A stretch of DNA of 60,144 nucleotides from a virus (IMGVR_UViG_3300025632_000016:1-60144), one strand, 5' to 3'; shown: positions 6,001-46,032, counted from the first letter of the stretch. The notes: generated by a model from the letters alone, not told the origin. Numbers and translations: made by a program.

Positions 6001-6906
6001 AAACCTATTAGTGATGCTGGAATGAGATTCTTTTTTGATGAAGTTCTTATACGCTCTCAAAGGTTAATCAATAAACCCGTAATACAAAGCGTTTACGATA
6101 AAGAGTTCGATACGTTTATATTATCAATAAACAATAAGTCAACATCAACGGGAACAGTTGCAACCACTCCACCTACAACAATAGTAATAACGCTAACAGA
6201 AGCACAAATAAAAGAGCTTGAACTAAGCGAAGATATAGTGTTAAAAACATTTACAGCCGCACCATTTGTAACAGAAACGGTTAGTAGTGGAGATTGGTCT
6301 AAAACAACAAGTACTACAATAACAGCAACCGTAACAAGTTCGGGGACATACAATCCCGCTGTTGACGTAGAGGTAATACAAGGACAGCAATACGTTCTTA
6401 ATTACTCCCCCAAGAATAATAAATGGATGTCTTTCTTTGATTACAAAGGTGATGCATTCGGTAGTGCGAGAAGTAGATTATGCTCTAGTAAAGATGGCAA
6501 ATTCTATTTACATAACAGCCCTAATGTTTCCTCTTATGGAAACTTTTACGGTTCTCAACACGAATCATATATCACCATTCCTTTTGCCGCAGAGCCTACT
6601 AACACAAAGAACGCTAGGGCATTAGAGATAGAATCAACAGACACTAACTTCTACTTGGACAGCGGAACAAACGAAAGAGGACAAAGCACTAGCTTAATCA
6701 ACGGAGATTTCGAGGAAAAAGAAGGAAGGCAATGGGCTAACATACTAATGGATGAGAATACGCCTCTTGTTGGCGGCATAACAAATCCTATTACACAAGG
6801 GGACTTAATGATAGGCACATACTTTATTGCTAAAATCAACAATACAGCTACATCGTTAGTAAAAGTATTTAGCTCTACATTAAGATATGTTAAAAGCCTT
6901 ATTTAA
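3070..6906 (+). CDS. Tail nozzle/muzzle (P22 gp10-like stabilisation) protein
   Basis: 1278 aa; GMNQDSDPRYLKEGEYIEAKN start, LFWTDNHNEPKYIN, FQFRYRW, YGISDNPES, WMSFFDY and FEEKEG motifs; GGSGY-type beta insert. Confidence 0.75.
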   Translation: MIQEDRRFFYLGMNQDSDPRYLKEGEYIEAKNFYVSSTDGGNDNALENVKSTLEVSYTLPSGGRYKCVKIQDDEENQRTYIFLWSSEGAHIILYYSYLDETLRLLVRDNFYSIVGTLGGATPTYATSYTAGDVVLRTGGISSENKYYICLVGFTSASYAGEKDPEKNSLIWKEIGNYLNFQENNYIDSAIIIRDGQTLLFWTDNHNEPKYINVDKLIGSEYPTALQAEHFDLCPLQPLHQTLLSDIPTTGGANNSLIGKYFQFRYRWVFDDDMYGAWSPISEMNTYNTNLFANPTTAYSALKLRVYRNSSIPNRLKRIEVAYRDCRDGNSGDWYKFADIDGSDISASNKYRFTKFDTSTFALNGNWGLTGGGVQYESFYEVIFDNNCAKVPIDQNEANQLYSFCPKKAGTIAVTEDNRLVFGDIEENLDISGVELDMAASYVYSAPRVTSPSISYERTLKTGAKYKWGIRYSDGKGRLSTVLTNFDLEKETDWYDSIAVTPSVAVSLNMRIGHAPPSWAKTWQLCYLPIGIDYEGSTPLAYQFMAGADTPVAANGQSLISLQIPRTFNNDNDDSQFPLSFSDEYYVRGVYDASASSYWPQYDESKVIETIDSGEIASAMILDGGSGYSLSPTVTVVGGGGENCTVTVSVDATGAISTPISLTAGSGFTSFPTIRISDTSGSGANIVVDKIKFKKYIKIDSSGWTTKPLGDDILEVYKKSTDENNALWREFGYPCKVGYDANGDLAHLGLDSLINTVSGFGDPDAPSQNQVISSLTDLVYNPKNVGDMYLSYTFLDYDADNFPPSKTIPTTGRTAVGGAFFLEVPFADIRTASRSTSLKRPLVALEDNRLPALNTTLRWSDPLVQNTNINGLGFFYDINFRELKNEYGTIRKIFAENEYLKVLFDRKMGLLPMGRTEINSLDGNNFVGKTTDVFGTPRYSVSDYGISDNPESLSYFGGASMFVDRNKNTVLISSGIEVKPISDAGMRFFFDEVLIRSQRLINKPVIQSVYDKEFDTFILSINNKSTSTGTVATTPPTTIVITLTEAQIKELELSEDIVLKTFTAAPFVTETVSSGDWSKTTSTTITATVTSSGTYNPAVDVEVIQGQQYVLNYSPKNNKWMSFFDYKGDAFGSARSRLCSSKDGKFYLHNSPNVSSYGNFYGSQHESYITIPFAAEPTNTKNARALEIESTDTNFYLDSGTNERGQSTSLINGDFEEKEGRQWANILMDENTPLVGGITNPITQGDLMIGTYFIAKINNTATSLVKVFSSTLRYVKSLI

Positions 6907-8348: not shown

Positions 8349-9944
8349 ATGGCATTAGAAAGAAAACCACAGAATTTAAGGGGCTACGGATTAGCGCAAG
8401 ACCCTAAGGTAGAGTTAGATACAACGTTTATAGATGACCAAAATAGGCGTGCGTACCAACAAAGGGGTATAGAAGCGCAACAAGAGGCTCAACAAAAGAA
8501 CTTTGCTCAAAGGGATAAAGAAACTAGGGTAGACTTATTAAAGGGTATTCCTACCATAGAATCAAATTGGTCGCCAGAAATAAAGAACAAGATAAATACC
8601 GAAATAGATGCTTTTATAAAAGGAGCGGGAGATTTATCTACTGAGGAAATTGTAGTGGGGCTAAACGGATTAAAATCAAAGGCTGGGGCATATAAGAGCA
8701 TAGGAACTGCATTAAAAGATAGGGCAACTAAAGTAGCGGCTGGAGATATATATTCTGGCTTGGATGGTGATAAATTATTAGGGTTAAAGCTTGAAGAAGA
8801 TTTTAAGAATCTGACTTTTGAAGAAGCAATGGCTAAAGCTATGAATATAACTCAAAGTCAATTTGCGCCAATGCCTGATATGACCCAATGGGAAACCTTA
8901 AAGAATAATGTTTACGATTTTGCTAAATCATCATCTACGGGAGAAATGGAGTATGCTGGTAATCTAGGGGACAAGTCCTATGGTAGATTTGCATTTAATG
9001 TAGACCCTAATGCAAAGATAGCAGCCGTAAGTAACTTTATGACGGGTAATAGAGGTTTTTATAATTTATACGCTGAAAAAAATGATTTAGAATATGATGA
9101 AATAGAATCAACATTATCATCTCAAATAGATGATGTTGTTTTTGATAAGTGGGCTGAGAATACTCCAAAAGCTGATAAAGAATTTAAACCAACGTATAGT
9201 CGAGGCGGTGGCTCTAGCTTAGAATATAATTATGGGGTATCAGAAGGTACTAGAAAAGAGGAGGGGCGTGTTCCTCAGGGTCTTGGATTTCCAAATGTAG
9301 ATATTAATATGAATTATGTAGATATTATTCCCAAAGATGGCAAGACCTTACCGCTATCTAAAATAAAAGGTAAGAATGGGGAGGTAGTTACAGGGGTAAT
9401 AGTTTCAGTAACAGAAGGAAGTGATGGAGATTTAAAACTAGTGGTAAATAAAAAACTTTCTAGCTATGAGCAAACTCTTGACCTATACAATCAAGCAAAA
9501 GAATTATTAAAAGCCAATACTAAGGAATTAAATAATTTTAATGAATTAAATGATGAAGAAAAATTAGCTAAGGTAGAGAAGTTGGTTTTAAGCGGAAAAA
9601 TAAAGCCAAAAACAGAAACCACAGAGTTACTTGACTATGAGTCAAATAAAAACTTAGTAGCCCCCAATAGGAAAGAAATTTATAAAATGCTAGGTGATGT
9701 AAGGGCTTACGAAAATCCAGAGCAAATAAAAGAAGATGGATTTACTTACTTCGCTAAACAAGATGGAAGCGACCCAATAGGTATAGACGAACTACATAAA
9801 ACTTTCTTGAACGAGAAAAGGAAAGGTGACACTTTTGGTGAGTATATAAAGGGATTTGATTATATTCCACAAGAAGGTGATATGCCTAATGTAGGTGGAG
9901 CTAAGGTGGTAGAAGATTTTTCAGAATTTGAAGTTAAAGGATAA
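8349..9944 (+). CDS. Ejection (internal virion) protein 2
   Basis: 531-aa helical protein between ejection protein 1 and the giant protein; TAATG coupling to the next gene. Confidence 0.5.
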   Translation: MALERKPQNLRGYGLAQDPKVELDTTFIDDQNRRAYQQRGIEAQQEAQQKNFAQRDKETRVDLLKGIPTIESNWSPEIKNKINTEIDAFIKGAGDLSTEEIVVGLNGLKSKAGAYKSIGTALKDRATKVAAGDIYSGLDGDKLLGLKLEEDFKNLTFEEAMAKAMNITQSQFAPMPDMTQWETLKNNVYDFAKSSSTGEMEYAGNLGDKSYGRFAFNVDPNAKIAAVSNFMTGNRGFYNLYAEKNDLEYDEIESTLSSQIDDVVFDKWAENTPKADKEFKPTYSRGGGSSLEYNYGVSEGTRKEEGRVPQGLGFPNVDINMNYVDIIPKDGKTLPLSKIKGKNGEVVTGVIVSVTEGSDGDLKLVVNKKLSSYEQTLDLYNQAKELLKANTKELNNFNELNDEEKLAKVEKLVLSGKIKPKTETTELLDYESNKNLVAPNRKEIYKMLGDVRAYENPEQIKEDGFTYFAKQDGSDPIGIDELHKTFLNEKRKGDTFGEYIKGFDYIPQEGDMPNVGGAKVVEDFSEFEVKG

Positions 9945-12900
9945 TGGATAAAAAATATTACATAGCAGGTGGAAAGAAATACGCTATTCCAAATGAGAAA
10001 TCGGAAGCTTTTATATCTAAATTTCCAGACGCACAAGAGGCAAAGTATTACGACAATGTAGAGGGAAAGAAATATTATATACCATTAGATAAGGTAGAAT
10101 CTTTTGAATCTAAATTTAATATAGCGCAAAGCACCGATGGGGGTGGTGCTATGGGAAAGCCCGAAGGCTCACAAGAGCCATTAGAGCAGTCGGAAGGTAC
10201 TACTACAACATCTTCATCGGAAACGCAATCACCTACTTCAGAACAGAGTGGAGAAGGGATTGATTTAGATTACTTTTTATCGCAAGCACCTAAAGCTACG
10301 GAAACTGATTCTGGTCAAGAACAGCCTAGAGAAACGTATGACCCCGAATACATAGCCGAAGAAGAGGCTAAGTTATCAGAAGAATTTAACCGTGTAAAGC
10401 AATTGGAAAAAGAAGTTGCTAAAAATACGGGGGGATATGAAACTGACATATCTGCTTTAAGGGACTCTGTTGATATGGAAATAAAATCCGTATCTGACAG
10501 TATAAGTTCAGAATTTGATATTATCAACAAGCAAGTTTCGGATTCTGTTTTAGCTGAATTAGATGTAAGAAAAGCCCAATTACAAGAGCAGATAAATTCT
10601 GGGAATATATCGGTAGAAGATGCTAATAAAATACTATCCGAAGAATCTGATAAATATAAAGTAGAGGCTAAAAAAAGTATAGACAGCAAGAAGCCAGAAC
10701 TAGCCGCTGCATTAAACAAGCGGGTAAGTGAAATTAATAATGCGTATCAATCATCATTAAATGAACTTCAAGATAAGCGGAATATATATAATAAGCAAAA
10801 GCAAGAAAAAGAAATAGAAGAAATGTCTCCTTGGGAGAATATAGGTAGGGCTTTTCAAAACGAATGGACTAAGACTAAGATGATTCCAGCCCAATCCATT
10901 CAAGTGGCATCTCAGTTAACACCAGAGGGCAATGAAAAAGAAACTAGAGTTATTATAGATGCTAATGGAATTAGATTAGTGGAGCAAACTCCAGCAGAAG
11001 GTCAAATATATAACAGAAATCAATTAGAGGAATTAAGAAAAGAAATAGAGCCAACAAAGCAAATAATTAAATCTATAAAGGATGGTGATTATTCTGGGGC
11101 TGCATCAGCAGTAGTTGGTAGTACTGTTAATTTCGCTGGCTCAATGGTCAGGGCATTAGCTAGTAGAGGGGCATCTATGGGCGCAGAAATGGGAGAGCCT
11201 ATGTGGGAGAGCGCTGTAAAGGCTGAGGCTGAGAAAACGGGTAAGACACCAGAGGAGGTGATAACAGAAGATTTAGAAGATGAACTTACAGCAATGAGTT
11301 TAGGTGCTGTTTCTGTTCTATCTGAGCGATTCGGAGTTAAGGCGTTTAAGAACGTAATGCAAAAAAACGTATTCAAAAAAGCTGTTAAGGATGAGATAAA
11401 TAAAAAAGCGCCTAGCCTATTGTCTGCATCTTTAAAAGAAACGGGTACTGAGTTATTTCAAGGTGGGATAGAAAAGGGTAATGAAGAAATTCTAAAAGGC
11501 GATGATGGGCTATATTCTCTTGAGGGTGGTAGTATTTTATATAATGAAATGAAAAACTTCATTGCCTCTGAAGAAGGTGCGGAAACGGCTATATCTACAT
11601 TCTTAGGCTCAATGATGTTATCTGGCGGAAGCAAGGGTGCTATGGCTGTTTATAACAACATAAATAAGAATCCTAAAGACATTACAGCGCCATCTATTGA
11701 TGAGATACTAAAAGACAGAGATAATGCAGCCGCATCATTTAATGAACTTTATGAGTCTGGTAAGCTATCAGAAGATGATTATAACTCATCATTAAATTTA
11801 ATAACAACTGTATCTGAATATGATAGTAAGCTATCGAAGGACAATACAAATAGAGCAGAGTCTATTAAATTAATGATGGAAAGAGACTCTAAGGCAGAGG
11901 AATTATCTCAATTAGATGAAACACAACAAGCTGGCGTAAAAAAAGAAATAGAGGATATTAACTTAGAGCTTGAAAAATTATCCGCTCAAAAAGAGGAAAC
12001 AAATGGAAAAGAAACAACTGAGCAACCCACAGCAGATATGCAAGAGGGTAAACGAGATAGTGAAGAAGTACAGCAAGAAGTAGAATCTCAAAAAGCTGAT
12101 ATAGGAAGAAGAAGACAAGAAGAGTTAAACTCTCCATTACAAAGCACAAGTTCACAAAAAGATGGTGCTAAAGGAAAAACTGTTGCTTCTCAATATGAAG
12201 ATGAATTTATATCAGTAGTAGCGTTTGAAGATGCTAATGGAACACCTTCAACAGTTATATCTATAAATCAAGGGGATAAAGACTCAACAAAAAAGGTAGT
12301 AGAACGAAAAACATTTGAAACATTAGACGAGGCTAAAGAATATGGTAACAACTATATAAAGCAAAGAAGCAGGATTTATGATAACCATATAGAAAAAACC
12401 AACGCTAGATATGATGCTGAATTAGCTGAGTTAAAATCTAATCAAGCGAGTGAAGAAGTACAGCAAGAAGACAGCGAAGCTAAGACTGAGAAAGCTCCTG
12501 CTGCTGAAACCGCTATACCTGAAGGTAAGAAAAAAGCTGAGGCTTATACCACTGAAGAGGTTGTTGAGATTGGAGACGACAGAATAGAGGAGTTCGTTGC
12601 TTCACAGGCTGAGGCTAAGGCTCAAAGGAGTGATGATGCACTTCAGGATACACCACTAACCGTAGAGGGTGTTAGGAAAATAAAGGCTGACGGAGGTAAG
12701 CTGTTCATGACTTCTGATGGAAAATCAGGGGGGTATGTTACCAAAGACGGATACATGGGTGGTCTATTCAAGCAGCCAAAATCTGGAAGAAGAGGTGCAG
12801 CAAAAGTATTGCAGGAAGCAAGAATAAAAGCAGGAGGTAAGTTCTTCGAAGCCTTTGGTATAAACCAAGAAACTGGAGAAGGAACTACGTTGGAGCAGAT

Positions 12901-15900
12901 ATATATTGAAAATGGTTTCAGACCTGTTGCTCGTATGACATTCAACCCAGAGATAGCTCCAGAAGGATGGGATGGAACTAACCTAAAAAGTAGACCAGAC
13001 AACGTGTTCTTTGTATACGACCCTAACGGTCAGTACGAGGCAGGAGATGGTGCTAGAATAGAAGACTACAATCAAGCATACGAATTAGCTAAAAATCAAG
13101 CAAATGAAACAAAAACAAAACCAAGTGCAGGGAACAGACTCTTCAATGAGCCCCTCAAGGCAGTTAAGGAAATTGCTGATAGATATTACGAAAGAGTTTT
13201 CGGTAAACCGAGGAAAGAGTTCCAAGGAACAAGAGAGCTCGATGTAGAGAGAGCTAAGAGACTCAGTGATGCCTTTGAAGCGATGAAGAACGACCCTAAC
13301 AACCCTGAGGTTAGAAAGGCTTACGAAGCATTAGCTAAAGAGACTATTGAGCAGTATAAAGACTTTGTTGATGCAGGATACGTTGTTGAGATAAACAACG
13401 AAGAGCCTTATGCTAACGCTCAAGAAATGATTGATGACCTTAGAAAAAATAAGAAAATCAAGATATTCTCAACAGAAAGTGGTTTTGGAGATAATGCCAT
13501 AACTGAGGAGCAGAGAGCAGAGAACCCATTATTAGCAAGAACTCAGTTCGTAGATGTTAATGGAGTGCCAATGCTTGTGAATGACTTATTCAGAGCTATA
13601 CATGACTTTTACGGTCACGCAGAGTTAGGTAACGGGTTTGGAGCTATTGGGGAGGAAAATGCTTGGAATTTACACGCAAGAATGTTTTCTCCACTAGCAA
13701 GAAGAGCCATGACTACTGAGACTAGGGGGCAGAACTCATGGGTAAACTTCTCTGGTGCTAACGACAAGATAAAAGCTCTAAGGCAAGAAGCTAGAAGGTT
13801 AAGAGAGGAAGGAGCTCCGAAAGAGCAGGTTCAAAAGATAGTTGATGAAATCTACGAGATAGGTTCTTTTGCTGACCAGAAGATAGGCTTACTTCCAGAA
13901 GAGTTTTCTGATATATCAGAGTCACTTGAAAAGCAAGATGCGTTAAAGAAGAAGCCGAGAGTGAGAATAAGGACAGCAAAAATTAAATTAAAGCCAGAGC
14001 AAAAAATAAATTACAAAGTAGGTGATGATATTTTAAGTGGTAAGGTTGTCGAGGATTTGGGTAACGAGGTGAGTGTTGAGACTCCTAGCGGAGATACAGT
14101 AGTGATTGATAAAAAAGACTTATCTAATCCACCTAAGCCTAAAAGAAAAAGAATAAGAACTGTACAGGATGAGACTGAAGGGCTTACTCAAAAAGAACAA
14201 ACAAAACAAGCCGTAGAAGAGTTATCAGATGCTTTTATTAGAGAGAAAAAGGCTGCTGTAAAAAAGATAAGAACATCTCTTCAAGAGAAAGCTAAACGTA
14301 TATTCGAGCTAAATAAAAAGAAAAAAGACAATAGAAAGTTATTAAAAGACTTTTCTAGGGATTTACTTGATAAAATGAATAAGTCTGGTATAAAGTCTGC
14401 TAGAATAAAGGAAGTTAAAACTATAATTAATCAAATAGGAAAGGACGTTTCTAGTGATAAACAACTTCAAGAGTCAGTAGGAAGAATAATAAACGCCATA
14501 CAAGACCTAAATGACTTAAAGAAAATAGAGGATTATAATAAAAAACTGTCCGATGCTAATAGTAAATCAAAGAGCATTAAAAGGAAATCTAAGTCAAAGA
14601 CTCAAATAGCTACGTTAAAAAATATAGCTAAACGATTTTCTTTGATAAACCCAAAGGATGTATCTAATATAGATGAATATCTAGAGTTTGCGGGAGAATT
14701 GAATAATGCGCTGTCAGCGCCAATAGTGAAGATGGATGGAGTTGAAACTAAGTCTCCAATAAATAAAGATAAAATTAACAACTACATAGAAGAGGCGCTT
14801 TCTGAAAATGAATCTTCAAGTAAAGCGAAACTGTTAGATAACTTCTCTGATTACGCTGATATGGGCGCTATTGACGGGTCAATGACATCTAAGGAGATAA
14901 AAGAAGTTATTGACGCTATAGAGGGCGGTAAGGATGTCCCTAGTAAAAACATAGAGGCATTTAGGCAGGTTGCTAGTAGATATTTATCCGCACAACAAAA
15001 GGCTCTTAAAGAGGTAATAAAGGAAGCCCCTCAAAACGTAAAGTCAAGATTAAGGGATTTATCTAACGCTAGGCTAGACTTATTAGACTACAAGGATATG
15101 GTTATGGCTATTAGAACTATTAACAACGCTATAGAAAATCTTGATATAGATAATGTTGATTTAATAACAGCAAGAGCTACGGCTAAAGAGAACGCTATAT
15201 CATTCGCAAAAGGAAGACCTAAAATAAGTGAGATTTCTTTTGGTAAAAGCCTAATGATTGGAGATACACTAAAGAGTTTTTCAAAAACATTAGCTAGACT
15301 ATATTTAAAAGGAGTAGGCTCTACAACATTAATAGCTGAAGGTATATTTGGATTTGAGGGTTTGGTTAAATTTATAGATAAATCTAGGTTTTTTGATGTA
15401 CTAAAAGGATATAAGGATTCTCAAAAATACTCCAAAAAAATATTTGATAAATACAATAATAAATTTAAAAATGTAAAAGATTTCTTTAGTAAGGATAATG
15501 TTTACGAAAGAGGAATAGTAGCATATCTAGGAAGGTTTAAGGATGATTCTGTAGCTGAATTTGAAAGAAGGAAAAAGCTATTAACAGAAACATTGTCAGA
15601 CCTAGAGAAGAGTGACTTCGAGAAGTATGAATCGTACCTAAGTGTTTACAATAAAGTAGTTAGAGATTCTAAGAATTTTGATGAAGTAAAGAGTAAGGCG
15701 GAAAAAAATAACGTTGATGCTGTTAATTTTTGGGTAGATGAGTTCTCTAAGCATTTCGATAGTATGAGTGATGTATCTATGGCTGTGTATAACACAATGC
15801 TAGATAAGGAGAATAATTATCTTCCAGACACCTATAAAAGAATAAAAGGTGTTGAGTCAAAAAATAAAGACCCAAAGCAAGTAGGCTCATCGTTTCTAGG

Positions 15901-17497
15901 TTCTTTTGATAATATAGATAAGTCGAAAAGCGGAAGGTTTAACGAGGTAGTGTCTCCAAAGACATTGGCTAAAAGAAGGTATGTAGATTTATCTTTTGAG
16001 GAAAATATGGTTAAATCTTTAGAGTCGATATTAACGGATATTAATACAGCAAAAGACATCCAATATTTATCAGAGTTTATAGATAGCGATGCTATTAGAG
16101 ACTTATTTAAGTCAACCGATGATTACAAATTTTTAAGAGGTAGAGTAATAAGCCTTATTGATAATATAAAACAAAACTCTATCCCAATGGATGAGGATTC
16201 AATGCAAGCATCAAAGTTAGTGAATAGAATAGGTAAAACATCTACAGGATTAGCTCTAGTAGGACTAGGTCAACCAATAAAGCAATTCGTACCAGTAATG
16301 CTTAACACGGTAATTAATCTAGTAGGAAAAGGGTTTACATTGCCAGACTTTAAGGTAAGAGAGGGTCAGAAGAAAATACTAGGAGAGTCTATAACATCAT
16401 TTAGAGGGCTAGAATCAACAGCAAACATTGATAATCAAGTAAACAAGTATTTAGACGGAAGACCAAATCTTTTAAATAAAGCCCTAGATAAGTCACTAAA
16501 AATGGCTATAGAAAATCCTGATAAAGCAGCGGCAGGAATATCTTGGGTGTCATACTACACGAAGAGATTGAAGTCGCAAGGCAAAGAAGTTCAGTTTGAT
16601 AAATTAGATAGGGAAGCTTCAATATATGCTGACTTGCAAGTATCTCGTCAACAAAACGTTCCTACTAAGGAATTAATGGGTGAGTTATTCACTAGCAAGC
16701 AACTATCTACAAGAATAGTTAAATCTATATTCTTCCCGTTTTCTGGTTTTGCGTTCAATATAAAAACAAGAATATGGACTGATGTAAAGGCGCTAAAGTC
16801 AAAGAACTCTACTAAGCCAGAGAAGCAAATGGCTGCTAAATCTTTGGTAGGAGCTACTACGGAATTAGTTGCGTATAGGATACTGCAAGGAGCTATAACA
16901 TATATGATAGGGTATATGGTTAATGTAATGCTTTTAGGTGAGGATGAAGAAGAGTTTAAGGAGAAACAAGCTAAAACATTCAAGAGAAGTCTGCTTAATA
17001 ACGGAATAAACGATGTATTGTCACCAGCACCACCATTAGACAAGGCTGTTGCATACACATTTAACAAGAAAATACTTGAGCCTACATACGAAAAAATGAA
17101 TGTAGAAGAGAAAGATAGGATATACGCTTATGATAAAAGCTATGGTAACGACTTAGGATTATTAGGTATCCCCTATGAGAAGGGTCAGAAATTCTATAAG
17201 ATGTTAGATATGGCGGCAGATATAGATGACGTTCCTCTTTTTGACGCAAAGCAATACTTTACCGATAAGGATATAGAAAAGAGAATATCTGAAAACGATA
17301 AAGCCGTAATGCAAGTGGTAGCTCCTATATATGGTTTATATTTAATGGGCTTAATGCCAAGAGAAGTTGGCTCTGCTGCTGAAAAAGCTATGCAGACAAT
17401 AGAAAGGAGAAGTAAAACAGATAAAAGCGGAAGCGAATCATCTAGCTTCTTGAAATTACCAACCCTAAAGACACCTAAAGTGCCTAAACTTAAATAA
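9944..17497 (+). CDS. Giant multidomain (polyvalent) ejection protein with GNAT-like and HDxxGH zincin-like domains
   Basis: 2517 aa; GNAT-like segment (GGLFKQP...LEQIYIENGFRPVARMTFN) at about 12600-13080; NDLFRAIHDFYGH...GEENAW...TETRGQNSWVNF at about 13130-13920; long helical C-terminal region with hydrophobic segments. Confidence 0.7.
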   Translation: MDKKYYIAGGKKYAIPNEKSEAFISKFPDAQEAKYYDNVEGKKYYIPLDKVESFESKFNIAQSTDGGGAMGKPEGSQEPLEQSEGTTTTSSSETQSPTSEQSGEGIDLDYFLSQAPKATETDSGQEQPRETYDPEYIAEEEAKLSEEFNRVKQLEKEVAKNTGGYETDISALRDSVDMEIKSVSDSISSEFDIINKQVSDSVLAELDVRKAQLQEQINSGNISVEDANKILSEESDKYKVEAKKSIDSKKPELAAALNKRVSEINNAYQSSLNELQDKRNIYNKQKQEKEIEEMSPWENIGRAFQNEWTKTKMIPAQSIQVASQLTPEGNEKETRVIIDANGIRLVEQTPAEGQIYNRNQLEELRKEIEPTKQIIKSIKDGDYSGAASAVVGSTVNFAGSMVRALASRGASMGAEMGEPMWESAVKAEAEKTGKTPEEVITEDLEDELTAMSLGAVSVLSERFGVKAFKNVMQKNVFKKAVKDEINKKAPSLLSASLKETGTELFQGGIEKGNEEILKGDDGLYSLEGGSILYNEMKNFIASEEGAETAISTFLGSMMLSGGSKGAMAVYNNINKNPKDITAPSIDEILKDRDNAAASFNELYESGKLSEDDYNSSLNLITTVSEYDSKLSKDNTNRAESIKLMMERDSKAEELSQLDETQQAGVKKEIEDINLELEKLSAQKEETNGKETTEQPTADMQEGKRDSEEVQQEVESQKADIGRRRQEELNSPLQSTSSQKDGAKGKTVASQYEDEFISVVAFEDANGTPSTVISINQGDKDSTKKVVERKTFETLDEAKEYGNNYIKQRSRIYDNHIEKTNARYDAELAELKSNQASEEVQQEDSEAKTEKAPAAETAIPEGKKKAEAYTTEEVVEIGDDRIEEFVASQAEAKAQRSDDALQDTPLTVEGVRKIKADGGKLFMTSDGKSGGYVTKDGYMGGLFKQPKSGRRGAAKVLQEARIKAGGKFFEAFGINQETGEGTTLEQIYIENGFRPVARMTFNPEIAPEGWDGTNLKSRPDNVFFVYDPNGQYEAGDGARIEDYNQAYELAKNQANETKTKPSAGNRLFNEPLKAVKEIADRYYERVFGKPRKEFQGTRELDVERAKRLSDAFEAMKNDPNNPEVRKAYEALAKETIEQYKDFVDAGYVVEINNEEPYANAQEMIDDLRKNKKIKIFSTESGFGDNAITEEQRAENPLLARTQFVDVNGVPMLVNDLFRAIHDFYGHAELGNGFGAIGEENAWNLHARMFSPLARRAMTTETRGQNSWVNFSGANDKIKALRQEARRLREEGAPKEQVQKIVDEIYEIGSFADQKIGLLPEEFSDISESLEKQDALKKKPRVRIRTAKIKLKPEQKINYKVGDDILSGKVVEDLGNEVSVETPSGDTVVIDKKDLSNPPKPKRKRIRTVQDETEGLTQKEQTKQAVEELSDAFIREKKAAVKKIRTSLQEKAKRIFELNKKKKDNRKLLKDFSRDLLDKMNKSGIKSARIKEVKTIINQIGKDVSSDKQLQESVGRIINAIQDLNDLKKIEDYNKKLSDANSKSKSIKRKSKSKTQIATLKNIAKRFSLINPKDVSNIDEYLEFAGELNNALSAPIVKMDGVETKSPINKDKINNYIEEALSENESSSKAKLLDNFSDYADMGAIDGSMTSKEIKEVIDAIEGGKDVPSKNIEAFRQVASRYLSAQQKALKEVIKEAPQNVKSRLRDLSNARLDLLDYKDMVMAIRTINNAIENLDIDNVDLITARATAKENAISFAKGRPKISEISFGKSLMIGDTLKSFSKTLARLYLKGVGSTTLIAEGIFGFEGLVKFIDKSRFFDVLKGYKDSQKYSKKIFDKYNNKFKNVKDFFSKDNVYERGIVAYLGRFKDDSVAEFERRKKLLTETLSDLEKSDFEKYESYLSVYNKVVRDSKNFDEVKSKAEKNNVDAVNFWVDEFSKHFDSMSDVSMAVYNTMLDKENNYLPDTYKRIKGVESKNKDPKQVGSSFLGSFDNIDKSKSGRFNEVVSPKTLAKRRYVDLSFEENMVKSLESILTDINTAKDIQYLSEFIDSDAIRDLFKSTDDYKFLRGRVISLIDNIKQNSIPMDEDSMQASKLVNRIGKTSTGLALVGLGQPIKQFVPVMLNTVINLVGKGFTLPDFKVREGQKKILGESITSFRGLESTANIDNQVNKYLDGRPNLLNKALDKSLKMAIENPDKAAAGISWVSYYTKRLKSQGKEVQFDKLDREASIYADLQVSRQQNVPTKELMGELFTSKQLSTRIVKSIFFPFSGFAFNIKTRIWTDVKALKSKNSTKPEKQMAAKSLVGATTELVAYRILQGAITYMIGYMVNVMLLGEDEEEFKEKQAKTFKRSLLNNGINDVLSPAPPLDKAVAYTFNKKILEPTYEKMNVEEKDRIYAYDKSYGNDLGLLGIPYEKGQKFYKMLDMAADIDDVPLFDAKQYFTDKDIEKRISENDKAVMQVVAPIYGLYLMGLMPREVGSAAEKAMQTIERRSKTDKSGSESSSFLKLPTLKTPKVPKLK
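10153..10179 (+). other. Candidate programmed -1 ribosomal frameshift signal
   Basis: In-frame G GGA AAG heptamer (10153-10159), 6-nt spacer, hairpin GGCTC-acaa-GAGCC (10166-10179). Confidence 0.55.
12059..12470 (+). repeat. 22-bp direct repeats bounding a 390-bp in-frame module
   Basis: agtgaagaagtacagcaagaag at 12059-12080 and 12449-12470; offset 390 bp = 130 codons. Confidence 0.85.
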
Positions 17498-40309: not shown

Positions 40310-40654
40310 TTAAAATAAATCTTTCACTGGTAGTAGTATTCCTTTTGATGAATTGCTATCTCCACCTCTTTTGTCACGGTTTGTATTTAGATGCTTTCTA
40401 CATAGTTTCTTTAGGGTGGTTGACGGGAGGATTATGAGTGTTTCTTGTATTGCTATGCAGTAGTATTTAGCTTCTGATGTTGCTATTCCTGATGGCCTTC
40501 CTCTTGATTGGTATTCTATGAATATATTTCCTGTTTTGTGTGCTTGTAGGTCTGTTTTAACTTCTATTTTTTCATTTTGAAGGATGTTAGCTAGTTCTTT
40601 TTCTTTTATTTGCCCTACCTTTAAGTCGTATTTGAAGTCTGAGTTATATTCCAT
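40310..40654 (-). CDS. PD-(D/E)XK-like small nuclease-fold protein
   Basis: KIEVKTD...TGNIFIEY...PSGIATSEA...GGD...SKGILLP. Confidence 0.65.
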   Translation of the reverse strand: MEYNSDFKYDLKVGQIKEKELANILQNEKIEVKTDLQAHKTGNIFIEYQSRGRPSGIATSEAKYYCIAIQETLIILPSTTLKKLCRKHLNTNRDKRGGDSNSSKGILLPVKDLF

Positions 40655-40831
40655 TGTTTAGCGGCAAAAATTAAACTGAATACATTAGCTGTATTTGAAT
40701 GTAGCGTTTATAATATATAATATCCTATTCTTTTTCATACAGCTAAAGTAATTAATTATTCTATTCGCATATGTTAATAGGTGTTATTATATTTTTAGTA
40801 CACCCTAGTTTGAGTATATTTGTTTTTAAAT

Positions 40832-41266
40832 ATGGATGATGTTAAATTAAATACAAGCTGGTCTGATGATGACCTATCTTCATTGTGTAGGATAGAGAAT
40901 CATAAGATTGTAAAGGATAGGGACTCTAATTACAGGTGGTATCACAAGTTGGGTGGCGTTTGGGGGGTTCATAGTATATGGGTGTTTGATGATTACAGGA
41001 AGCCTTCTGCTTATTTACATTTTTGGCTTGCTATGTGGTTAAAGGAGCTTAGACAGCGAGAATGCCGTGCTATTAGGCTAAGGACATCTAAGAATAGGAA
41101 AGCTAGGTTAATTAAGAAGAGTTTAAGGAAGGCTATGGTTAATAAGATTTTGGAGTTGAATAAATTATTTCCAGAATATTCTAAGCAGGAGTTGGCGAAT
41201 GAGTTGGACGTTAGCTTGAGTACGGTGCAAAGAGCCTTAAAGAGGCAAAACAAAAAAGCCCAGTAG
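40832..41266 (+). CDS. Protein with C-terminal HTH
   Basis: YSKQELANELDVSLSTVQRALK; TATATTTG at 40815-40822; lone + strand gene in the early region. Confidence 0.7.
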   Translation: MDDVKLNTSWSDDDLSSLCRIENHKIVKDRDSNYRWYHKLGGVWGVHSIWVFDDYRKPSAYLHFWLAMWLKELRQRECRAIRLRTSKNRKARLIKKSLRKAMVNKILELNKLFPEYSKQELANELDVSLSTVQRALKRQNKKAQ

Positions 41267-41313
41267 TTAACCGAGCCTTTTTATATTCATTTCTTAAACT
41301 TTTTTTCGTATCA

Positions 41314-41343
41314 TTATCGTATCTTATCGTATCTTATCGTATC
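41314..41343. repeat. 10-bp tandem repeat
   Basis: ttatcgtatc three times, plus a degenerate copy upstream, between convergent genes. Confidence 0.85.
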
Positions 41344-41344
41344 G

Positions 41345-41584
41345 CTACCATCTCCACCAATAATTACCATCCTCTAGTTCATTCTTATGCTTATCCTTGA
41401 TAGTCATTATATCTAAGCCCCGTATAGCTGTTACGTCATCTACTTCTATAACAGCAGACACATCGCCACAACATTGCTTATGTAGCTGTATTTTACCCCA
41501 TCCTGCGAGTTTTATGGTGTATTTTATAGAGTCTATCTCCACCGTATCTCCTACGGAGTATAATATGTCTTTGTGTAGTTTCAT
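41345..41584 (-). CDS. Hypothetical protein
   Basis: ORF. Confidence 0.55.
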   Translation of the reverse strand: MKLHKDILYSVGDTVEIDSIKYTIKLAGWGKIQLHKQCCGDVSAVIEVDDVTAIRGLDIMTIKDKHKNELEDGNYWWRW

Positions 41585-41676
41585 AATTATTTCTTTGTGT
41601 TTTGCGGGTAATTTACCAATATAATCTCACTTAATTCATAAGCGTGTTTAGAGCCATCTATCATTATTATCATCCA

Positions 41677-41907
41677 TTACCTCCGCTTCATTCTGCTTGC
41701 GCCATTAGCATCAAGAGATATAACGTTACACTTCTTAGGTATAATACCTGAATCGCTGATTTGCTTCCAGCCACCCTTTACTTTCTCGTATATATCTAAG
41801 CCTATTTTAGCCCGTTTAACACCTTCTAGTGTTTCTGAGTAAGAAGAATACTCCGCAGCATCCATTAAGTCTTGTAGCGTACTGTTTCTAATCAATTTTG
41901 TTTTCAT
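41677..41907 (-). CDS. Hypothetical protein
   Basis: ORF directly downstream of the HisRS-like gene. Confidence 0.55.
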   Translation of the reverse strand: MKTKLIRNSTLQDLMDAAEYSSYSETLEGVKRAKIGLDIYEKVKGGWKQISDSGIIPKKCNVISLDANGASRMKRR

Positions 41908-41913
41908 AATTAT

Positions 41914-42546
41914 CTATTTACAAAGCATTAATCTATCAAACCCAATGGCAAACCCAATTCCTCTATCATAAGCACCACCTCCGCATATCTGTTCTTGCGC
42001 TCCTAGTTGTTTACAGCGTAATTCAAAGCCTTTATCTGTATAATAACCCAATCCCCTTGTTACGGAATAATCTATCGTTATATCCTTTGTTTGAAGTTCA
42101 CAAAGTTCTTTAGATATGTCTATTAATTCTTCTTTGATTAAATCAGTAGATGGGTTTATTACTTCGCAACCAAACTGCCAAAATTCTCTGTATCTGCCCC
42201 TTTGCGGTTTTTCGTATCTCCAGCATTTCTCAAAATACCAAACTCTTATTTCTTTTTTAGCTTGCCAAAAATGATTAGCAATTAATTGAACGGTTGCCGT
42301 TGCTTCTGGTCGTAAGCATACATTCCTTCCTTTTTTATCTGGAAATACCCACATTTGATTAAGAACCTCAGAACCCGCTTTATCAACGTATATCTCTGAC
42401 GGCTCTACGCTAGGTAGCTGTATTCCCTGAAAACCGTAAGATTCAACGGTAGCTATCATTTTATTTAATAGCGTGTATCTATCTCTTACTTCGTCACCAA
42501 ATAATATTCTAGTGCCTCTTGACTGTTTCTCTATTTTATATTCCAT
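41914..42546 (-). CDS. Minimal histidyl-tRNA synthetase-like catalytic domain (class II aaRS core only)
   Basis: Motif 1 YGFQGIQLPSVE; LRPEATA; motif 2 WRYEKPQRGRYREFWQFGCE; HisA RGLGYY; HisB CGGGAYD; motif 3 GFAIGFDRL; ends immediately after motif 3. Confidence 0.9.
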   Translation of the reverse strand: MEYKIEKQSRGTRILFGDEVRDRYTLLNKMIATVESYGFQGIQLPSVEPSEIYVDKAGSEVLNQMWVFPDKKGRNVCLRPEATATVQLIANHFWQAKKEIRVWYFEKCWRYEKPQRGRYREFWQFGCEVINPSTDLIKEELIDISKELCELQTKDITIDYSVTRGLGYYTDKGFELRCKQLGAQEQICGGGAYDRGIGFAIGFDRLMLCK

Positions 42547-42548
42547 TA

Positions 42549-42746
42549 TTATCTATATTTTTTTTCAAACTCATCTATTGTTGTAATTACCTTTGGGTTG
42601 TTATACGGTATAAAGCACCATATATTTGTGTCTGAAATACGCCCAAAGAAGCCTTCATCGATATATGGGTATATTTTTTCCCCATTTAATCCCGTCATAT
42701 TCTTTAAGCCTAAATTATTTGCAAGATATTCTTTTGTTATTTTCAT
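42549..42746 (-). CDS. Hypothetical protein
   Basis: ORF directly upstream of the HisRS-like gene. Confidence 0.55.
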   Translation of the reverse strand: MKITKEYLANNLGLKNMTGLNGEKIYPYIDEGFFGRISDTNIWCFIPYNNPKVITTIDEFEKKYR

Positions 42747-42755
42747 TTTATTTAA

Positions 42756-42941
42756 TTATTTATCGTTTAATTCTTCTGCTAATTCTATTATTCCGTTATC
42801 TACTGTTTCCTTATGAAATCCACTTCCGTAAAGCATTGAAACAACAGCGTCTAATACTTCATCCATCGTTACATCTTGGTGGTCTAATTCAACGGAAATT
42901 TTCTTACCGTAACCCTCATATGTTATTTTAGTTGTATTCAT
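42756..42941 (-). CDS. Hypothetical protein
   Basis: Small acidic ORF. Confidence 0.6.
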   Translation of the reverse strand: MNTTKITYEGYGKKISVELDHQDVTMDEVLDAVVSMLYGSGFHKETVDNGIIELAEELNDK

Positions 42942-42944
42942 ATC

Positions 42945-43376
42945 TTAATTATTTAATAAAATATGTATTACTATTCCCACTCCAATCAAAAACACAGCTA
43001 ATAACCTTACAAAAACATAGTTTAAGCCCGTTTTAAGGTACTTTCTAGCCATCTTATCAAGAAAAGCAGTTTGTCCTATGTAAAATATTCCCTTTCCCCT
43101 TAAAACGTTTAAAAACAAGTCAAAGGAAATGCTGTATGATAATGCACAAGCTATAAGTCTTGGAACGAAGTATCCATCTTTAGGTAGAGCGTGGTGTAAT
43201 AACGCACCACCTAGTAAAAACATTAGTATAAACTTAGCTGTGTGATACAGCCATTCTAGCTTGTATTCTCTTTTTATTAGGGTGGCATCAAAAGGGGCTA
43301 TAATCATCCCTAAGGCAAACCCTCCCATCACTACTAATGCAGTGGGGTCTATTTCTATGTTATCTATTTGTATCAT
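42945..43376 (-). CDS. Multi-pass membrane protein
   Basis: About four hydrophobic segments; FDLFLNVLRGKGIFYIGQTAFLDK; promoter at 43381-43388. Confidence 0.7.
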   Translation of the reverse strand: MIQIDNIEIDPTALVVMGGFALGMIIAPFDATLIKREYKLEWLYHTAKFILMFLLGGALLHHALPKDGYFVPRLIACALSYSISFDLFLNVLRGKGIFYIGQTAFLDKMARKYLKTGLNYVFVRLLAVFLIGVGIVIHILLNN

Positions 43377-43380
43377 AATT

Positions 43381-43425
43381 CAAATGTATTAATAATGTCT
43401 ATTCGTTAATGTTAAAAAGGGTTAA
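43381..43425 (-). promoter_or_regulatory. Early promoter: TAnnTTTG plus upstream TTAAC-N5-TTAAC box (representative - strand copy)
   Basis: caaatgta at 43381; gttaa at 43411 and 43421. Other - strand -7 elements at 24883, 31321, 34514, 36582, 36820, 37553, 39543, 40130, 43683, 44044 and 44631. Confidence 0.7.
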
Positions 43426-43459
43426 AATTGAAACATTAAAACGCACCTTATGCAATGCG

Positions 43460-43678
43460 TTAATTCTTTATCTCTGGCTTCAACAAATCAGTAAGTAATT
43501 TACTGTATTCCACTTGCTGATACAGTAATTCATTTTCTTCATCACAGAAGGATAATTCTGCTTCATAATATTCTAGCATTGATATAAGGTATTCCATAAC
43601 CGTTCTAGTAGGGTCTGTATAATCTTCTGTGTTTATATTTATTTGTTCTCCGTTGTTTAAAAATAGTGAAAATTTCAT
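43460..43678 (-). CDS. Small acidic hypothetical protein
   Basis: Promoter at 43683; stop codon overlaps an attC-like half site (TAACgcattgcataaggtgcgttttaatg). Confidence 0.6.
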   Translation of the reverse strand: MKFSLFLNNGEQININTEDYTDPTRTVMEYLISMLEYYEAELSFCDEENELLYQQVEYSKLLTDLLKPEIKN

Positions 43679-43745
43679 ATATCAAATATACCCTTTTTGT
43701 TTAGGAGGAGGTTATTGACTAATAATTATATTCCGCCATAATTCT

Positions 43746-44027
43746 TCACTTATTTAAAATATTAGAGATAAAATCAAATAATGGCTTTACTTCTTTTATG
43801 TTTATGCTTATTGAGTTATGATGTCTGTTTTCGCCTACTGTAACCTCGTCAAACGTAATCGTATGAGGCTTACCATCTAAATACATAGCAGAACATATTA
43901 CATCGCTAGAAACGCCTTTAACCTCAATCCATTTAGAAATGTATCTATCCGTATTACTATCCTTACTGAATATTAAGTCTATTTCAGCTTTAGTTTTTAA
44001 TGTTTGAAGGTTATCTTCTTTTTCCAT
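43746..44027 (-). CDS. Hypothetical protein
   Basis: ORF with a promoter at 44044-44051. Confidence 0.6.
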   Translation of the reverse strand: MEKEDNLQTLKTKAEIDLIFSKDSNTDRYISKWIEVKGVSSDVICSAMYLDGKPHTITFDEVTVGENRHHNSISINIKEVKPLFDFISNILNK

Positions 44028-44239
44028 AATTCTTTATTTAAGGCAAACATAAATAAAGCATCCTAACGTAAAGGTTAATAGAAGTTAACTTGAAGTAACA
44101 AACTGTGACATAAAGTTATCGAACATACTAGGTCTAATTGAAAGAAAGATAGGGGAGTGCATTAAAGCGCATAGCCTAAGTAACTAACATTAGTAAACCA
44201 AATCAACAAAGAAGGCAAGACCAAAAAAAACGTTTATCT

Positions 44240-44626
44240 AATTAAAAAAAGCATACTGCTCGTTTTTTCTTCTGTTATTGTGAGCTTTTCTTTATTCACT
44301 CCAATAACTCCTTCTTATCCGTCACATACCTAGCGCTTAGCAGCAGCCTTTCAATTCGGTGCATGGGTTGTTACCTCGTTAAAGACATCTCAATCCTTAA
44401 ACATTGCCCACATTAACGGCGATTATAAGTTGTTCTGAGGTTATTTAACGGCTTAGTGTCCGTGTATTCAGTCAGAAATGTTTCAAAAACACTGAATTGT
44501 ATGTACCTTATATCTATAAAAAAACCCAAGCTAGCGGCACGACTCGCATTACTTGGGTTTCAATATTCTTTCCGAAGAAAGGGTTATGAAAAATCTTTGT
44601 GGTTATCGTGCCATTTAAGATTGGAA
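44240..44626 (-). ncRNA. Candidate large structured non-coding RNA
   Basis: Promoter at 44631-44638, no credible ORF downstream, several helices (aacccaag/cttgggtt, attcagt/actgaat, gttattg/caataac, ggcacga/tcgtgcc). Confidence 0.4.
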
Positions 44627-44822
44627 AGGACAAATATAAACATTTTTTTATTATACAAACACAGTAAAAGAGATAAAAAAAAGAAAAAAACATATAGTTA
44701 GATGAATGAATATTCCATCATTAACTAAAAAAACAGCTATTAATGTAGCATATAAGCGACAATTTCAATCAAAATACAGCAGTTAAATTTAATATCTATC
44801 ATTATTTAAATATATTTGTTTT

Positions 44823-44903
44823 AACGGTATCGTACCAGTGCGTTAAGGGTTTGGATATTACCTTAACTTAGACGAAGACAGCAGTTCAGCAACGAACATT
44901 GTT
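44823..44903 (+). ncRNA. Candidate ~80-nt structured RNA (6S-Flavo-like)
   Basis: Starts 4 nt after TATATTTG (44811-44818); closing stem AACGGT/ATTGTT; internal stem GTTAAGG/CCTTAAC; ttagacga...cagttc segment. Confidence 0.5.
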
Positions 44904-44928
44904 ATTATTTTTATTAATTTTGTATCCT

Positions 44929-45312
44929 ATGAAAGGAAAGAAAAAAAAGAAAACTGAAGTAAAAAGAACTAGCAAAGGCTTAGTTAGTTCTACCAATTAC
45001 AGTTCTATAAAGAAAACAAAGAACAAGACTAAGACTAAATCCGTTAAGAACGTTAAAGACACTAGCAAGTTAACTGATTTTAGCAATTTAAGAGGTGAGA
45101 GAGTTCATCCAATAAAATCTCAGACTTTCAAAAAAAACAAAGTAAACGCTAAGAAATCAAAAAGTAGGTCTGTTAGCGTAAATACATCTGTAGGGTCAAA
45201 CGGCTCAATAACAAGAAGCGTAGTAAAAAAGAGTACTACACCGAAGAAGACGGTTACTAGGTCAAGAGCGACTGGAGCTAAGCCTGTAAGAACCGTAAGA
45301 AAGAAGAGATAG
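44929..45312 (+). CDS. Highly basic K/S/T/R-rich protein
   Basis: Start MKGKKKKK at 44929, 6 nt after TAATTTTG. Confidence 0.65.
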   Translation: MKGKKKKKTEVKRTSKGLVSSTNYSSIKKTKNKTKTKSVKNVKDTSKLTDFSNLRGERVHPIKSQTFKKNKVNAKKSKSRSVSVNTSVGSNGSITRSVVKKSTTPKKTVTRSRATGAKPVRTVRKKR

Positions 45313-45348
45313 TATTATTTTTAGTATCTTTGCCTTAAACTAATTTTT

Positions 45349-46032
45349 ATGTCTGCAAATAGTTCAATAACCAACTTAACTCTAACTAACGGAGAAACAA
45401 AGCGAATATCAACCTTTTCAATAGAAAGCGTAATAGATACAGGAACATATAGAGTTGTTAAAACTTTTCTACCTACAAACAGATATAGGTCTTCAGATTC
45501 TTTAGCGGCTATAAAAGCTGAATCTGGAAGTTTATTTTCTGCAACAGAAGGTGGCGTGAGTATATTATTAAGCTCTTTAATTATAGAAAATATCATTGAT
45601 TTTAATGGTGTTTGTCAGATAATACTCCAAGGAGGAAGGAAAATAACTTTAGATGAAACTGTTTCTGTTATAGAGGCTAGGATTGATGCTTTAGGTGATA
45701 AACCTGCATTAGACCAAACAGAACAAACTTCTATTTTCATTAAAGCACCAGAGGACGGAACAGAAAAAGTAATTTTAAAAGCAGCATACCCATTTACAAT
45801 AACAGAAGTAACTACAATTTCAACAAGTGGAACTTGTACGCTTGCGGTATCAATAAACGCAACTGCATTAGGAGGTAGTTCAAATTCTGTTAGCACATCT
45901 GAGGTTAGTCAAGCACATTCAACGGACAATTCCGTTGCGATAGGAGATGATGTGAGCATTTCAATATCAAGTAATGCAAATTGCGAGGATTTAAATGTTT
46001 CACTAACGGGCGTAAGAACTTTAGCTCAATGA
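45349..46032 (+). CDS. Virion structural / decoration protein (putative)
   Basis: S/T/I-rich beta sequence; C-terminal YPFTITEV...AIGDDVSI domain typical of phage fibres. Confidence 0.55.
   Translation: MSANSSITNLTLTNGETKRISTFSIESVIDTGTYRVVKTFLPTNRYRSSDSLAAIKAESGSLFSATEGGVSILLSSLIIENIIDFNGVCQIILQGGRKITLDETVSVIEARIDALGDKPALDQTEQTSIFIKAPEDGTEKVILKAAYPFTITEVTTISTSGTCTLAVSINATALGGSSNSVSTSEVSQAHSTDNSVAIGDDVSISISSNANCEDLNVSLTGVRTLAQ

Follow-up and report, generated by a model that had tools for sequence, protein, structure and literature searches.

A 60,144-nucleotide stretch of viral DNA (IMGVR_UViG_3300025632_000016; 'the window' throughout), which is a whole IMG/VR virus record with a CheckV completeness of 60%, carries a gene for a short relative of histidyl-tRNA synthetase (HisRS). 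We identified this minimal HisRS core gene (P0001) at 41914–42546, stop codon included, from its open reading frame (ORF) and translation, from matches to PF13393 and TIGR00442, and from an AlphaFold2 (AF2) model searched with Foldseek. The ORF starts with ATG, spans 210 codons and ends in a TAG stop at 41914–41916. A 210-residue ORF had been placed here by the original prediction, which was made from the sequence alone and gave no strand; we confirmed it on the minus strand. The protein matched Pfam tRNA-synt_His (PF13393; E = 5.3e-27, 95.3 bits with a cut-off of 25) and, also above its cut-off, PF00587 (E = 5e-10). With the NCBIfam hisS model TIGR00442 it scored 179 bits (E = 1.5e-52), short of the full-length cut-off of 286.75, as half of such a protein would be expected to be, and with the hisZ model TIGR00443 it scored lower, at 99.3 bits against a cut-off of 271.65. 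PHROGs offered no family for the protein (E = 0.12).

Two defining domains of HisRS are absent, as had been predicted. The alignment to the Escherichia coli structure 1kmm came in two pieces, query residues 29–146 on chain residues 28–149 and query residues 150–208 on chain residues 245–314, skipping the insertion domain of about 95 residues (chain 149 to 245). Nothing in the protein aligned with the C-terminal domain of solved HisRS, and HGTP_anticodon (PF03129) had no match anywhere in the 60-kb record. The protein was expected to stop just after the arginine of motif 3, which it does; five residues (LMLCK) follow R205, not the four that had been counted. The hisS profile match continues through the TAG stop to profile position 358, which prompted the idea of a split or read-through anticodon domain in the 76-residue ORF at 41677–41907 (minus strand). 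This ORF begins 6 nt past the stop and is in the same frame, separated by the TAG and two codons. We rejected the candidate: Pfam found no HGTP_anticodon in the ORF or in a translation that reads TAG as Q. No family matched this ORF, and its conservation extends to only the three closest contigs.

All three class II motifs and the histidine-specific loops named in the original prediction were found. Conservation was read from two alignments of the short homologues described below, one of 20 sequences (A1) and one of 40 sequences down to 32% identity (A2); E. coli residue numbers were checked on the alignment to 1kmm, and all coordinates refer to the minus strand. Residues 12–49 (42400–42513) hold the N-terminal RGTR segment and the helix and strand of motif 1, the core of the predicted class II dimer interface, with G11, R13, G17 and P45 invariant in A1. 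The peptide DKKGR (residues 70–74; 42325–42339), whose D70, K71, K72 and R74 occur in all 20 sequences of A1, is the presumed counterpart of the Thermus thermophilus peptide 71'RGGR74', judged by its identical spacing to LRPE and not by a direct alignment with the Thermus chain. The histidine-binding and -ordering loop LRPEATAT (residues 78–85; 42292–42315), mapped on 1kmm columns, is invariant in A1 and at least 90% conserved in A2. Motif 2 and its loop, CWRYEKPQRGRYREFWQFGCE (residues 108–128; 42163–42225), were assigned by mapping to 1kmm and conservation in A1, and include the QFGCE named earlier (residues 124–128); R110, E112, Q115, G117, R118, Y119, R120, Q124 and E128 are invariant in A1, and position 113 is K, R or Q. 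The HisA loop RGLGYY (residues 164–169; 42040–42057) was assigned in the same way. In the HisB loop GGGAYD (residues 189–194; 41965–41982), G189–G191 and Y193 are invariant in A1 and position 192, an arginine in E. coli, varies. Motif 3, GFAIGFDRL (residues 198–206; 41929–41955), contributes R205, the equivalent of E. coli R311.

The remaining equivalences to E. coli HisRS are E81 to E83, T83 to T85, R110 to R113, R118 to R121, Q124 to Q127, E128 to E131, R164 to R259 and Y168/Y169 to Y263/Y264, which like R311 bind histidine and ATP in the E. coli enzyme, and, also in motif 2, E112 to E115, K113 to R116, Q115 to Q118 and R120 to R123. A1 has 81 invariant columns, among them all histidine and ATP ligands, so the claim that the residues for histidine binding and adenylation are all present held in 20 of 20 sequences. 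The claim that the protein is unlike HisZ held as well, given the kept catalytic residues and the hisZ score. In A2, P80, E81, T83, R110, Q115, G117, R120–F122, Q124 and E128 are at least 90% conserved, as are R164, Y169, F174, E175, G190, G191, Y193 and R205; of the ten mapped active-site residues, R118 and Y168 fall below this level.

The AF2 model of the protein was confident (predicted local distance difference test score, pLDDT, 88.4; predicted template modelling score, pTM, 0.87), and its best Foldseek matches were E. coli HisRS chains, headed by 1kmm_A (E = 8.2e-17, TM(query) 0.88). A dimer model had been proposed along with the original prediction. The homodimer scored 0.88 and the best control 0.00, a difference that may reflect likeness rather than binding, as HisRS dimers have already been solved; among proteins solved as pairs, 20 of 30 came up to the mark, and among those solved as single chains 1 of 23 did. 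Runs had at least 97% of contacts in common, with a partner pLDDT of at least 86, and the modelled interface comprised residues 3–52 and 66–121, including 12–18, 20–24 and 40–49.

The short protein belongs to a large family. A search limited to lengths of 115–368 residues returned 796 proteins; among the 120 matches listed, 114 were 206–218 residues long and 58–99% identical over their full length. Those 120 best short homologues scored 290–479 bits, whereas a search for longer proteins gave ordinary full-length HisRS only, most of it from archaea, and none of these matches exceeded 159 bits or 45% identity. Instead of the unique truncation with full-length closest relatives that the original prediction had set against itself, the proposed search for same-length homologues thus gave hundreds of proteins of about 210 residues with the same end. 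The C terminus lies 0–7 residues past GFDRLML in 19 of 20 family ORFs, the exception (L018) running further. An unrestricted search of 1.84 billion cluster representatives added many more clusters of about 200–225 residues, with end-to-end matches down to 35% identity, and a few fused forms. Several proteins depart from the common architecture: P0137 (564 residues) has an intein (Intein_splicing and LAGLIDADG) right after an LAPEY version of the LRPExT motif; P0255 (322 residues) is a HisRS that lacks the insertion domain only and keeps the anticodon-binding domain; P0124 (285 residues) carries a C-terminal extension of about 75 residues; and P0127 (353 residues), P0128 and P0132 carry N-terminal extensions of 55–137 residues, with no Pfam match in any of these extensions.

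Ratios of non-synonymous to synonymous substitution rates (dN/dS) between the window gene and its closest relatives were 0.049, 0.084 and 0.094, the first from 35.5 synonymous and 8.5 non-synonymous differences; the family is under strong purifying selection. We built a quick maximum-likelihood tree of 76 chosen rows (40 short forms, together with 12 of 65 loci from archaea, 3 of 4 hisS loci from Proteobacteria, 19 longer representatives and two putative HisZ sequences) from 220 of 641 alignment columns. All 40 short forms fell on one side of a branch of length 0.71 with a Shimodaira–Hasegawa-like approximate likelihood ratio test (SH-aLRT) value of 100, and the two putative HisZ sequences sat on a long separate branch (1.34). 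The tree did not resolve the sister group of the short forms, whose best-scoring full-length relatives are archaeal HisRS. As all 40 short forms make up one clade, we conclude that the double domain loss happened once, long ago, and was then maintained. The original prediction had argued against simple decay, and the large family of constant length, its one origin, dN/dS values of 0.05–0.09 and the invariant ligands support this view: the window gene encodes a natural, selected minimal enzyme.

Members of the family were found in phages and in bacteria. Among 50,697 GenBank phage records, 21 had some match and three covered at least 80% of the query, namely Sinorhizobium phage Phosso (469 kb) and two uncultured phages (635 kb and 642 kb). 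IMG/VR held at least 104 relatives, many of them on contigs of 350–675 kb, and the best 80 were used for the counts of genomic context. A search of 185,579 species, each represented by one genome, yielded at least 15 proteobacterial loci at 57–62% identity, followed by archaeal full-length HisRS. The carriers include Pseudomonas megaplasmids, Massilia, Undibacterium, Psychromonas, Pleionea and several metagenome-assembled genomes (MAGs). Members appear in public annotation as either 'histidyl-tRNA synthetase' or 'ATP phosphoribosyltransferase regulatory subunit', of which the second is probably wrong for them. The Pleionea genome, which has the short form and canonical hisS, also encodes a third core of class IIa (G004:C11:574961-576073, minus strand; 418-residue frame), which has an HGTP anticodon domain and matches the hisS profile only weakly.

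The phage copies frequently lie among tRNA genes. A tRNA gene was present within 10 kb at 55 of the 80 IMG/VR loci and a tRNA-His gene at 31; after dereplication at 80% identity, 32 of 47 clusters had a tRNA within this distance and 17 had tRNA-His, the most frequent type (Arg 16, Ser 14). Within 1 kb, tRNA-His occurred in 9 of the 18 clusters with any tRNA, followed by Trp in 7 and by Ser and Arg in 6 each. The short HisRS gene is often 8–120 nt from a tRNA on the same strand and often inside a tRNA array. In Phosso it is annotated at 4096–4686, in a tRNA-rich region, 275 nt downstream of a tRNA-His(GTG) with G-1, C73 and an encoded CCA, and both megaphage copies have tRNA-His-containing arrays 1.4–5.5 kb upstream. 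G at position -1 was found in 24 of 26 neighbouring tRNA-His genes (20 with C73 and 4 with A73), compared with 5 of 375 other tRNAs. A system lacking G-1 is reported for alpha-proteobacterial hosts (PMC3064791), which may include Sinorhizobium. The link of the family to tRNA arrays is strong, and a specific link to tRNA-His is real but modest.

The tRNAs themselves showed some peculiarities. Long-arm tRNAs with a His anticodon are unusual, and 6 of the 26 tRNA-His(GTG) genes near short HisRS genes measure 86–90 nt, have a long variable arm (type II shape) and drew no intron call. Each of these (L097:9898-9984, L165:9814-9903 and those of L099, L118, L129 and L154) has G-1 and C73, and two lie 17–19 nt upstream of the short HisRS gene, on contigs of 480–520 kb. 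In the L091–L170 arrays, T stands immediately before the 5' end of 257 of 375 non-His tRNAs, and AT precedes 174 of 375; ATG precedes 23 of 26 tRNA-His genes, this being the AT leader again with the encoded G-1 after it. One phage contig, of 155 kb, has two adjacent CTA (amber-reading) tRNAs (L108:17166-17318) at a distance of about 6.5 kb from its short HisRS gene.

We compared the family with what is described for tRNA recognition by HisRS in a study of the T. thermophilus complex (PMC4357726). There, the acceptor end is contacted by Arg7, Glu114, Arg115, Gln117, Lys118, Arg120 and Arg122, and 71'RGGR74' reaches G-1 of the tRNA on the other subunit, across the dimer. Insertion-domain contacts are reported to be dispensable in Thermus mutants (R197A keeps over half its activity and K209A is like wild type), and the anticodon to be a weak determinant for HisRS, mini- and microhelices being substrates (PMC4357726). 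The equivalents of tRNA-contacting residues are kept in the short family, as R/K10, E112, K/R/Q113, Q115, R118, R120, D70, K71, K72 and R74 in A1; their Thermus counterparts touch ATP and G-1, G1, C70–C74 and A76 of tRNA-His.

Canonical hisS is absent from two of the 15 bacterial carriers, a fragmented MAG (G035) and a Kangiellaceae MAG with a main contig of 3.07 Mb (G005). In G005, both the hisS profile and tblastn with the HisRS of a genome from the same family found the short form only. Canonical hisS scored over the cut-off in 30 of 30 relatives of G005, and the operon hisS-yfgM-bamB-der was intact in 9 of 9 relatives examined. In G005 itself, yfgM-bamB-der is present with unrelated genes (HupE/UreJ and others) in place of hisS, and no hisS remnant was detected at the operon site even at E = 100. 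The threonyl-, seryl- and prolyl-tRNA synthetases (ThrRS, SerRS and ProRS) are encoded on the same contig; the HGTP anticodon domains of the assembly are those of ThrRS and ProRS only, with none of the HisRS type. G005 has a normal tRNA-His with G-1, C73 and CCA, and its short form (L019:8001-8630) gives a gap-free alignment to the window protein, with 57% identity. This genome appears to rely on the 210-residue form, unless hisS lies in unassembled DNA, and such reliance would mean that the family can charge tRNA-His well enough for life.

In the window, the plus strand encodes terminase, portal and virion proteins, and a minus-strand block at 23.5–44.0 kb encodes a Prim-Pol/helicase, a helix-turn-helix protein, ERF and two exonucleases. 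The HisRS-like gene sits within this replication and recombination block, about 2 kb downstream of a divergent intergenic region, amid closely packed small minus-strand ORFs; a 65-residue ORF upstream ends 2 nt before its start. PHROGs gave no family for 7 of the 10 small ORFs neighbouring the gene, and megablast of the surrounding 12 kb against the 50,697 phage records gave no match. The large terminase matched 87 phage records at 28–29% identity, all of them phages of Flavobacterium, Cellulophaga, Tenacibaculum or Maribacter, or one uncultured virus; on account of these matches and a GC content of 32–38%, the host is likely to be a member of the Flavobacteriia. Using a consensus that we take to represent Bacteroidetes-type promoters, a pattern match found the promoter-like motif TTTG-N21-TATATTTG at 44631–44659 on the minus strand, in the divergent intergenic region upstream of the block, where it is a tentative candidate for the operon start. 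The window contained 9 matches to the motif against 3.4 expected, and 9 was reached by 1 of 100 shuffles. Scans of 40500–45400 for sigma-70 promoters and terminators did no better than shuffles. Of the phage early operon in the original prediction, the phage is borne out by the IMG/VR record and by the terminase, portal, Prim-Pol/helicase, ERF and exonuclease genes, and an early operon is plausible only. The plus strand also holds two very large virion-type ORFs, at 9944–17497 (2517 residues) and 3070–6906 (1278 residues), the latter matching PHROG virion structural protein families.

A comparison of neighbourhoods had also been proposed at the outset. When ORFs from 20 loci and the window were clustered, with an ORF filter that left out the L011 copy of the gene, only the HisRS-like family itself was widely common and no conserved partner emerged. 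One other gene family recurred in 5 bacterial loci, at varying positions.

The protein shares much with canonical class IIa HisRS (E. coli 1KMM/1HTT, T. thermophilus 4RDX and Thermoplasma 1WU7): the fold, motifs 1–3, HisA and HisB, the histidine and ATP ligands, the loop of motif 2 and the D(K/R)xGR peptide; in the model, its putative dimer would form through the same interface. It differs in having neither the insertion of about 95 residues nor the anticodon-binding domain of about 100, in a loop from GGGxY to motif 3 that is about 11 residues shorter, in its hisS score of 179 bits against 286.75, and in its distance from the best full-length relatives, which are at most 45% identical. Engineered HisRS cores, an N-terminal fragment of the E. 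coli enzyme (ref. 41 of PMC4357726) and urzymes of 119–145 residues (PMC3060492), likewise have no anticodon domain. These cores still activate histidine and weakly acylate tRNA-His, with urzyme acylation described in PMC11602164, which also covers related laboratory work on a database-derived minimal glycyl-tRNA synthetase (GlyRS). Those cores are laboratory constructs, whereas the window family is natural, selected, widespread and of intermediate size; it keeps motif 3 and the histidine loops and drops the insertion domain. HisZ, where database names often put members, is a HisRS paralogue that also has no anticodon-binding domain. It differs in keeping the insertion region (about 320–390 residues) and, according to PMC9437257, in having no adenylation activity, whereas the catalytic arginines are invariant in the window family and putative HisZ stands far away in the tree. 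GluQRS (YadB), by the same source a truncated paralogue of glutamyl-tRNA synthetase (GluRS) that glutamylates queuosine in tRNA-Asp, resembles the window protein in being a stand-alone catalytic core with an intact activation site and no anticodon-binding domain (PMC9437257). It is a class I enzyme for another amino acid whose acceptor is a modified base and not A76, and it serves as a model only for the alternative of another acceptor, weighed below.

We lean, to a modest degree, towards reading the window protein as a dimeric, anticodon-blind minimal HisRS that charges tRNA-His. The gene product would be a homodimer of class II catalytic cores, a member of a minimal HisRS family that is old and monophyletic. 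It would bind histidine and ATP, form histidyl-adenylate and transfer the histidine to the 3' end of tRNA-His. Recognition would be of the acceptor end only (G-1:C73 and CCA), by the motif 2 loop and the DKKGR peptide acting across subunits, with the anticodon not read. In huge phages the gene is carried along with phage tRNA-His genes that lie within tRNA arrays; in the window phage, with no tRNA genes of its own, the enzyme may supply extra capacity for His-tRNA-His charging while infection proceeds, with host tRNA as its substrate. On a broader proposition we are close to evenly divided, with doubt slightly ahead: that the 210-residue core is a complete, self-sufficient, anticodon-blind HisRS, a portable charging module that moves among phages, megaplasmids and bacteria, can displace canonical hisS, as in the G005 lineage, and is paired with phage tRNA-His in huge phages, the long-arm tRNAs 17–19 nt from the gene among them. 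We know of no smaller natural aminoacyl-tRNA synthetase than this core, if it is self-sufficient.

Several observations pull the other way. The short form is normally accessory, as 13 of the 15 bacterial carriers also have canonical hisS; the replacement case is a single MAG, the second hisS-less genome being fragmented. Around the bacterial copies there is neither a conserved neighbour nor a tRNA-His close by. Among the phage clusters, the tRNA closest to the gene is a tRNA-His in only 4 of 32, with Arg, Ser and Trp close behind His in frequency, and 15 of 47 lack any tRNA within 10 kb. The window's own clade belongs to this last group: we found no tRNA genes in the window and four related records (22–81% complete). 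Key motifs are gone in 6 of the 40 diverse members of A2. The engineered E. coli catalytic domain alone, which retains the insertion domain, is a poor enzyme, with about 0.6% efficiency (PMC4357726).

The original prediction had led with the idea that histidyl-adenylate is used for something other than normal tRNA charging. In this alternative the adenylate is made and the histidine is moved to an acceptor other than the 3' end of tRNA-His, such as a modified nucleoside or other RNA site, a protein or carrier or a small molecule; joining to a second nucleotide would give Ap4A-type products. It would account for an active site left intact while both tRNA-positioning domains are absent, and it has precedents in enzymes that are synthetase-like or have no anticodon domain and that modify RNA or load carrier proteins (PMC9437257). 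It also suits the 13 of 15 bacterial carriers with a normal hisS, in which the short form must add something, and the tRNA-less clade of the window; the association with tRNA arrays would fit an RNA-modifying enzyme too. However, no conserved partner or acceptor gene adjoins the short form in 20 loci, so any alternative acceptor must be universal. Among the conserved residues are those by which G-1, C74 and A76 are placed in the geometry of normal charging, and G005 apparently lives with the short form as its only HisRS. Given these contacts, the tRNA-array context and G005, we do not place the idea in the lead and regard another acceptor as unlikely.

A regulator in place of an enzyme seems less probable again, whether a HisZ-like histidine sensor for ATP phosphoribosyltransferase, a sponge for tRNA-His or histidine, or a subunit that forms heterodimers with host HisRS by way of the motif 1 interface and alters or poisons it. 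The public name 'ATP phosphoribosyltransferase regulatory subunit' points in this direction, the motif 1 dimer interface is intact in the homodimer model, and HisZ is the only HisRS paralogue given in a 2022 review (PMC9437257). Yet the hisS model outscores the hisZ model, which stays far below its cut-off, and the two putative HisZ sequences lie well away in the tree. Motifs 2 and 3 have invariant ATP-binding arginines, whereas HisZ is described as having no adenylation activity (PMC9437257). No HisG-like gene was among the neighbour families shared across the 20 loci, in a comparison that included no search aimed at HisG. That the gene is a decaying, functionless fragment of a captured hisS, for which half the length of HisRS and the missing PHROG family might speak, is very improbable in view of the low dN/dS values, the hundreds of same-length homologues with the same C terminus, the single clade of short forms, the confident AF2 model and a member that carries an intein.

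We thus return to the minimal tRNA-His-charging enzyme as the favoured reading. The family falls outside full HisRS membership, with two defining domains and the curated score lacking, but most likely works like HisRS. Full-text literature searches found no paper on a HisRS-like family of about 210 residues, though the inventory of phage aminoacyl-tRNA synthetases in PMC7162821 may list members simply as HisRS; a 2022 review of synthetase duplicates and paralogues has HisZ only under HisRS (PMC9437257). If members charge tRNA-His, they would be a natural counterpart of the engineered minimal synthetases used in arguments on how the genetic code began, and a living example of the acceptor-stem 'operational RNA code', so far studied with engineered fragments and urzymes only. 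The sufficiency of acceptor-stem recognition would become testable with a selected, soluble and widespread protein, which could also provide a compact, anticodon-independent histidine-charging tool for genetic-code engineering. For phage biology, the family is a defined and very common addition to the translation-related genes of tRNA-rich phages, and its presence in a tRNA-less phage of middle size, which probably infects Flavobacteriia, raises the question of how extra anticodon-blind histidine charging helps infection.

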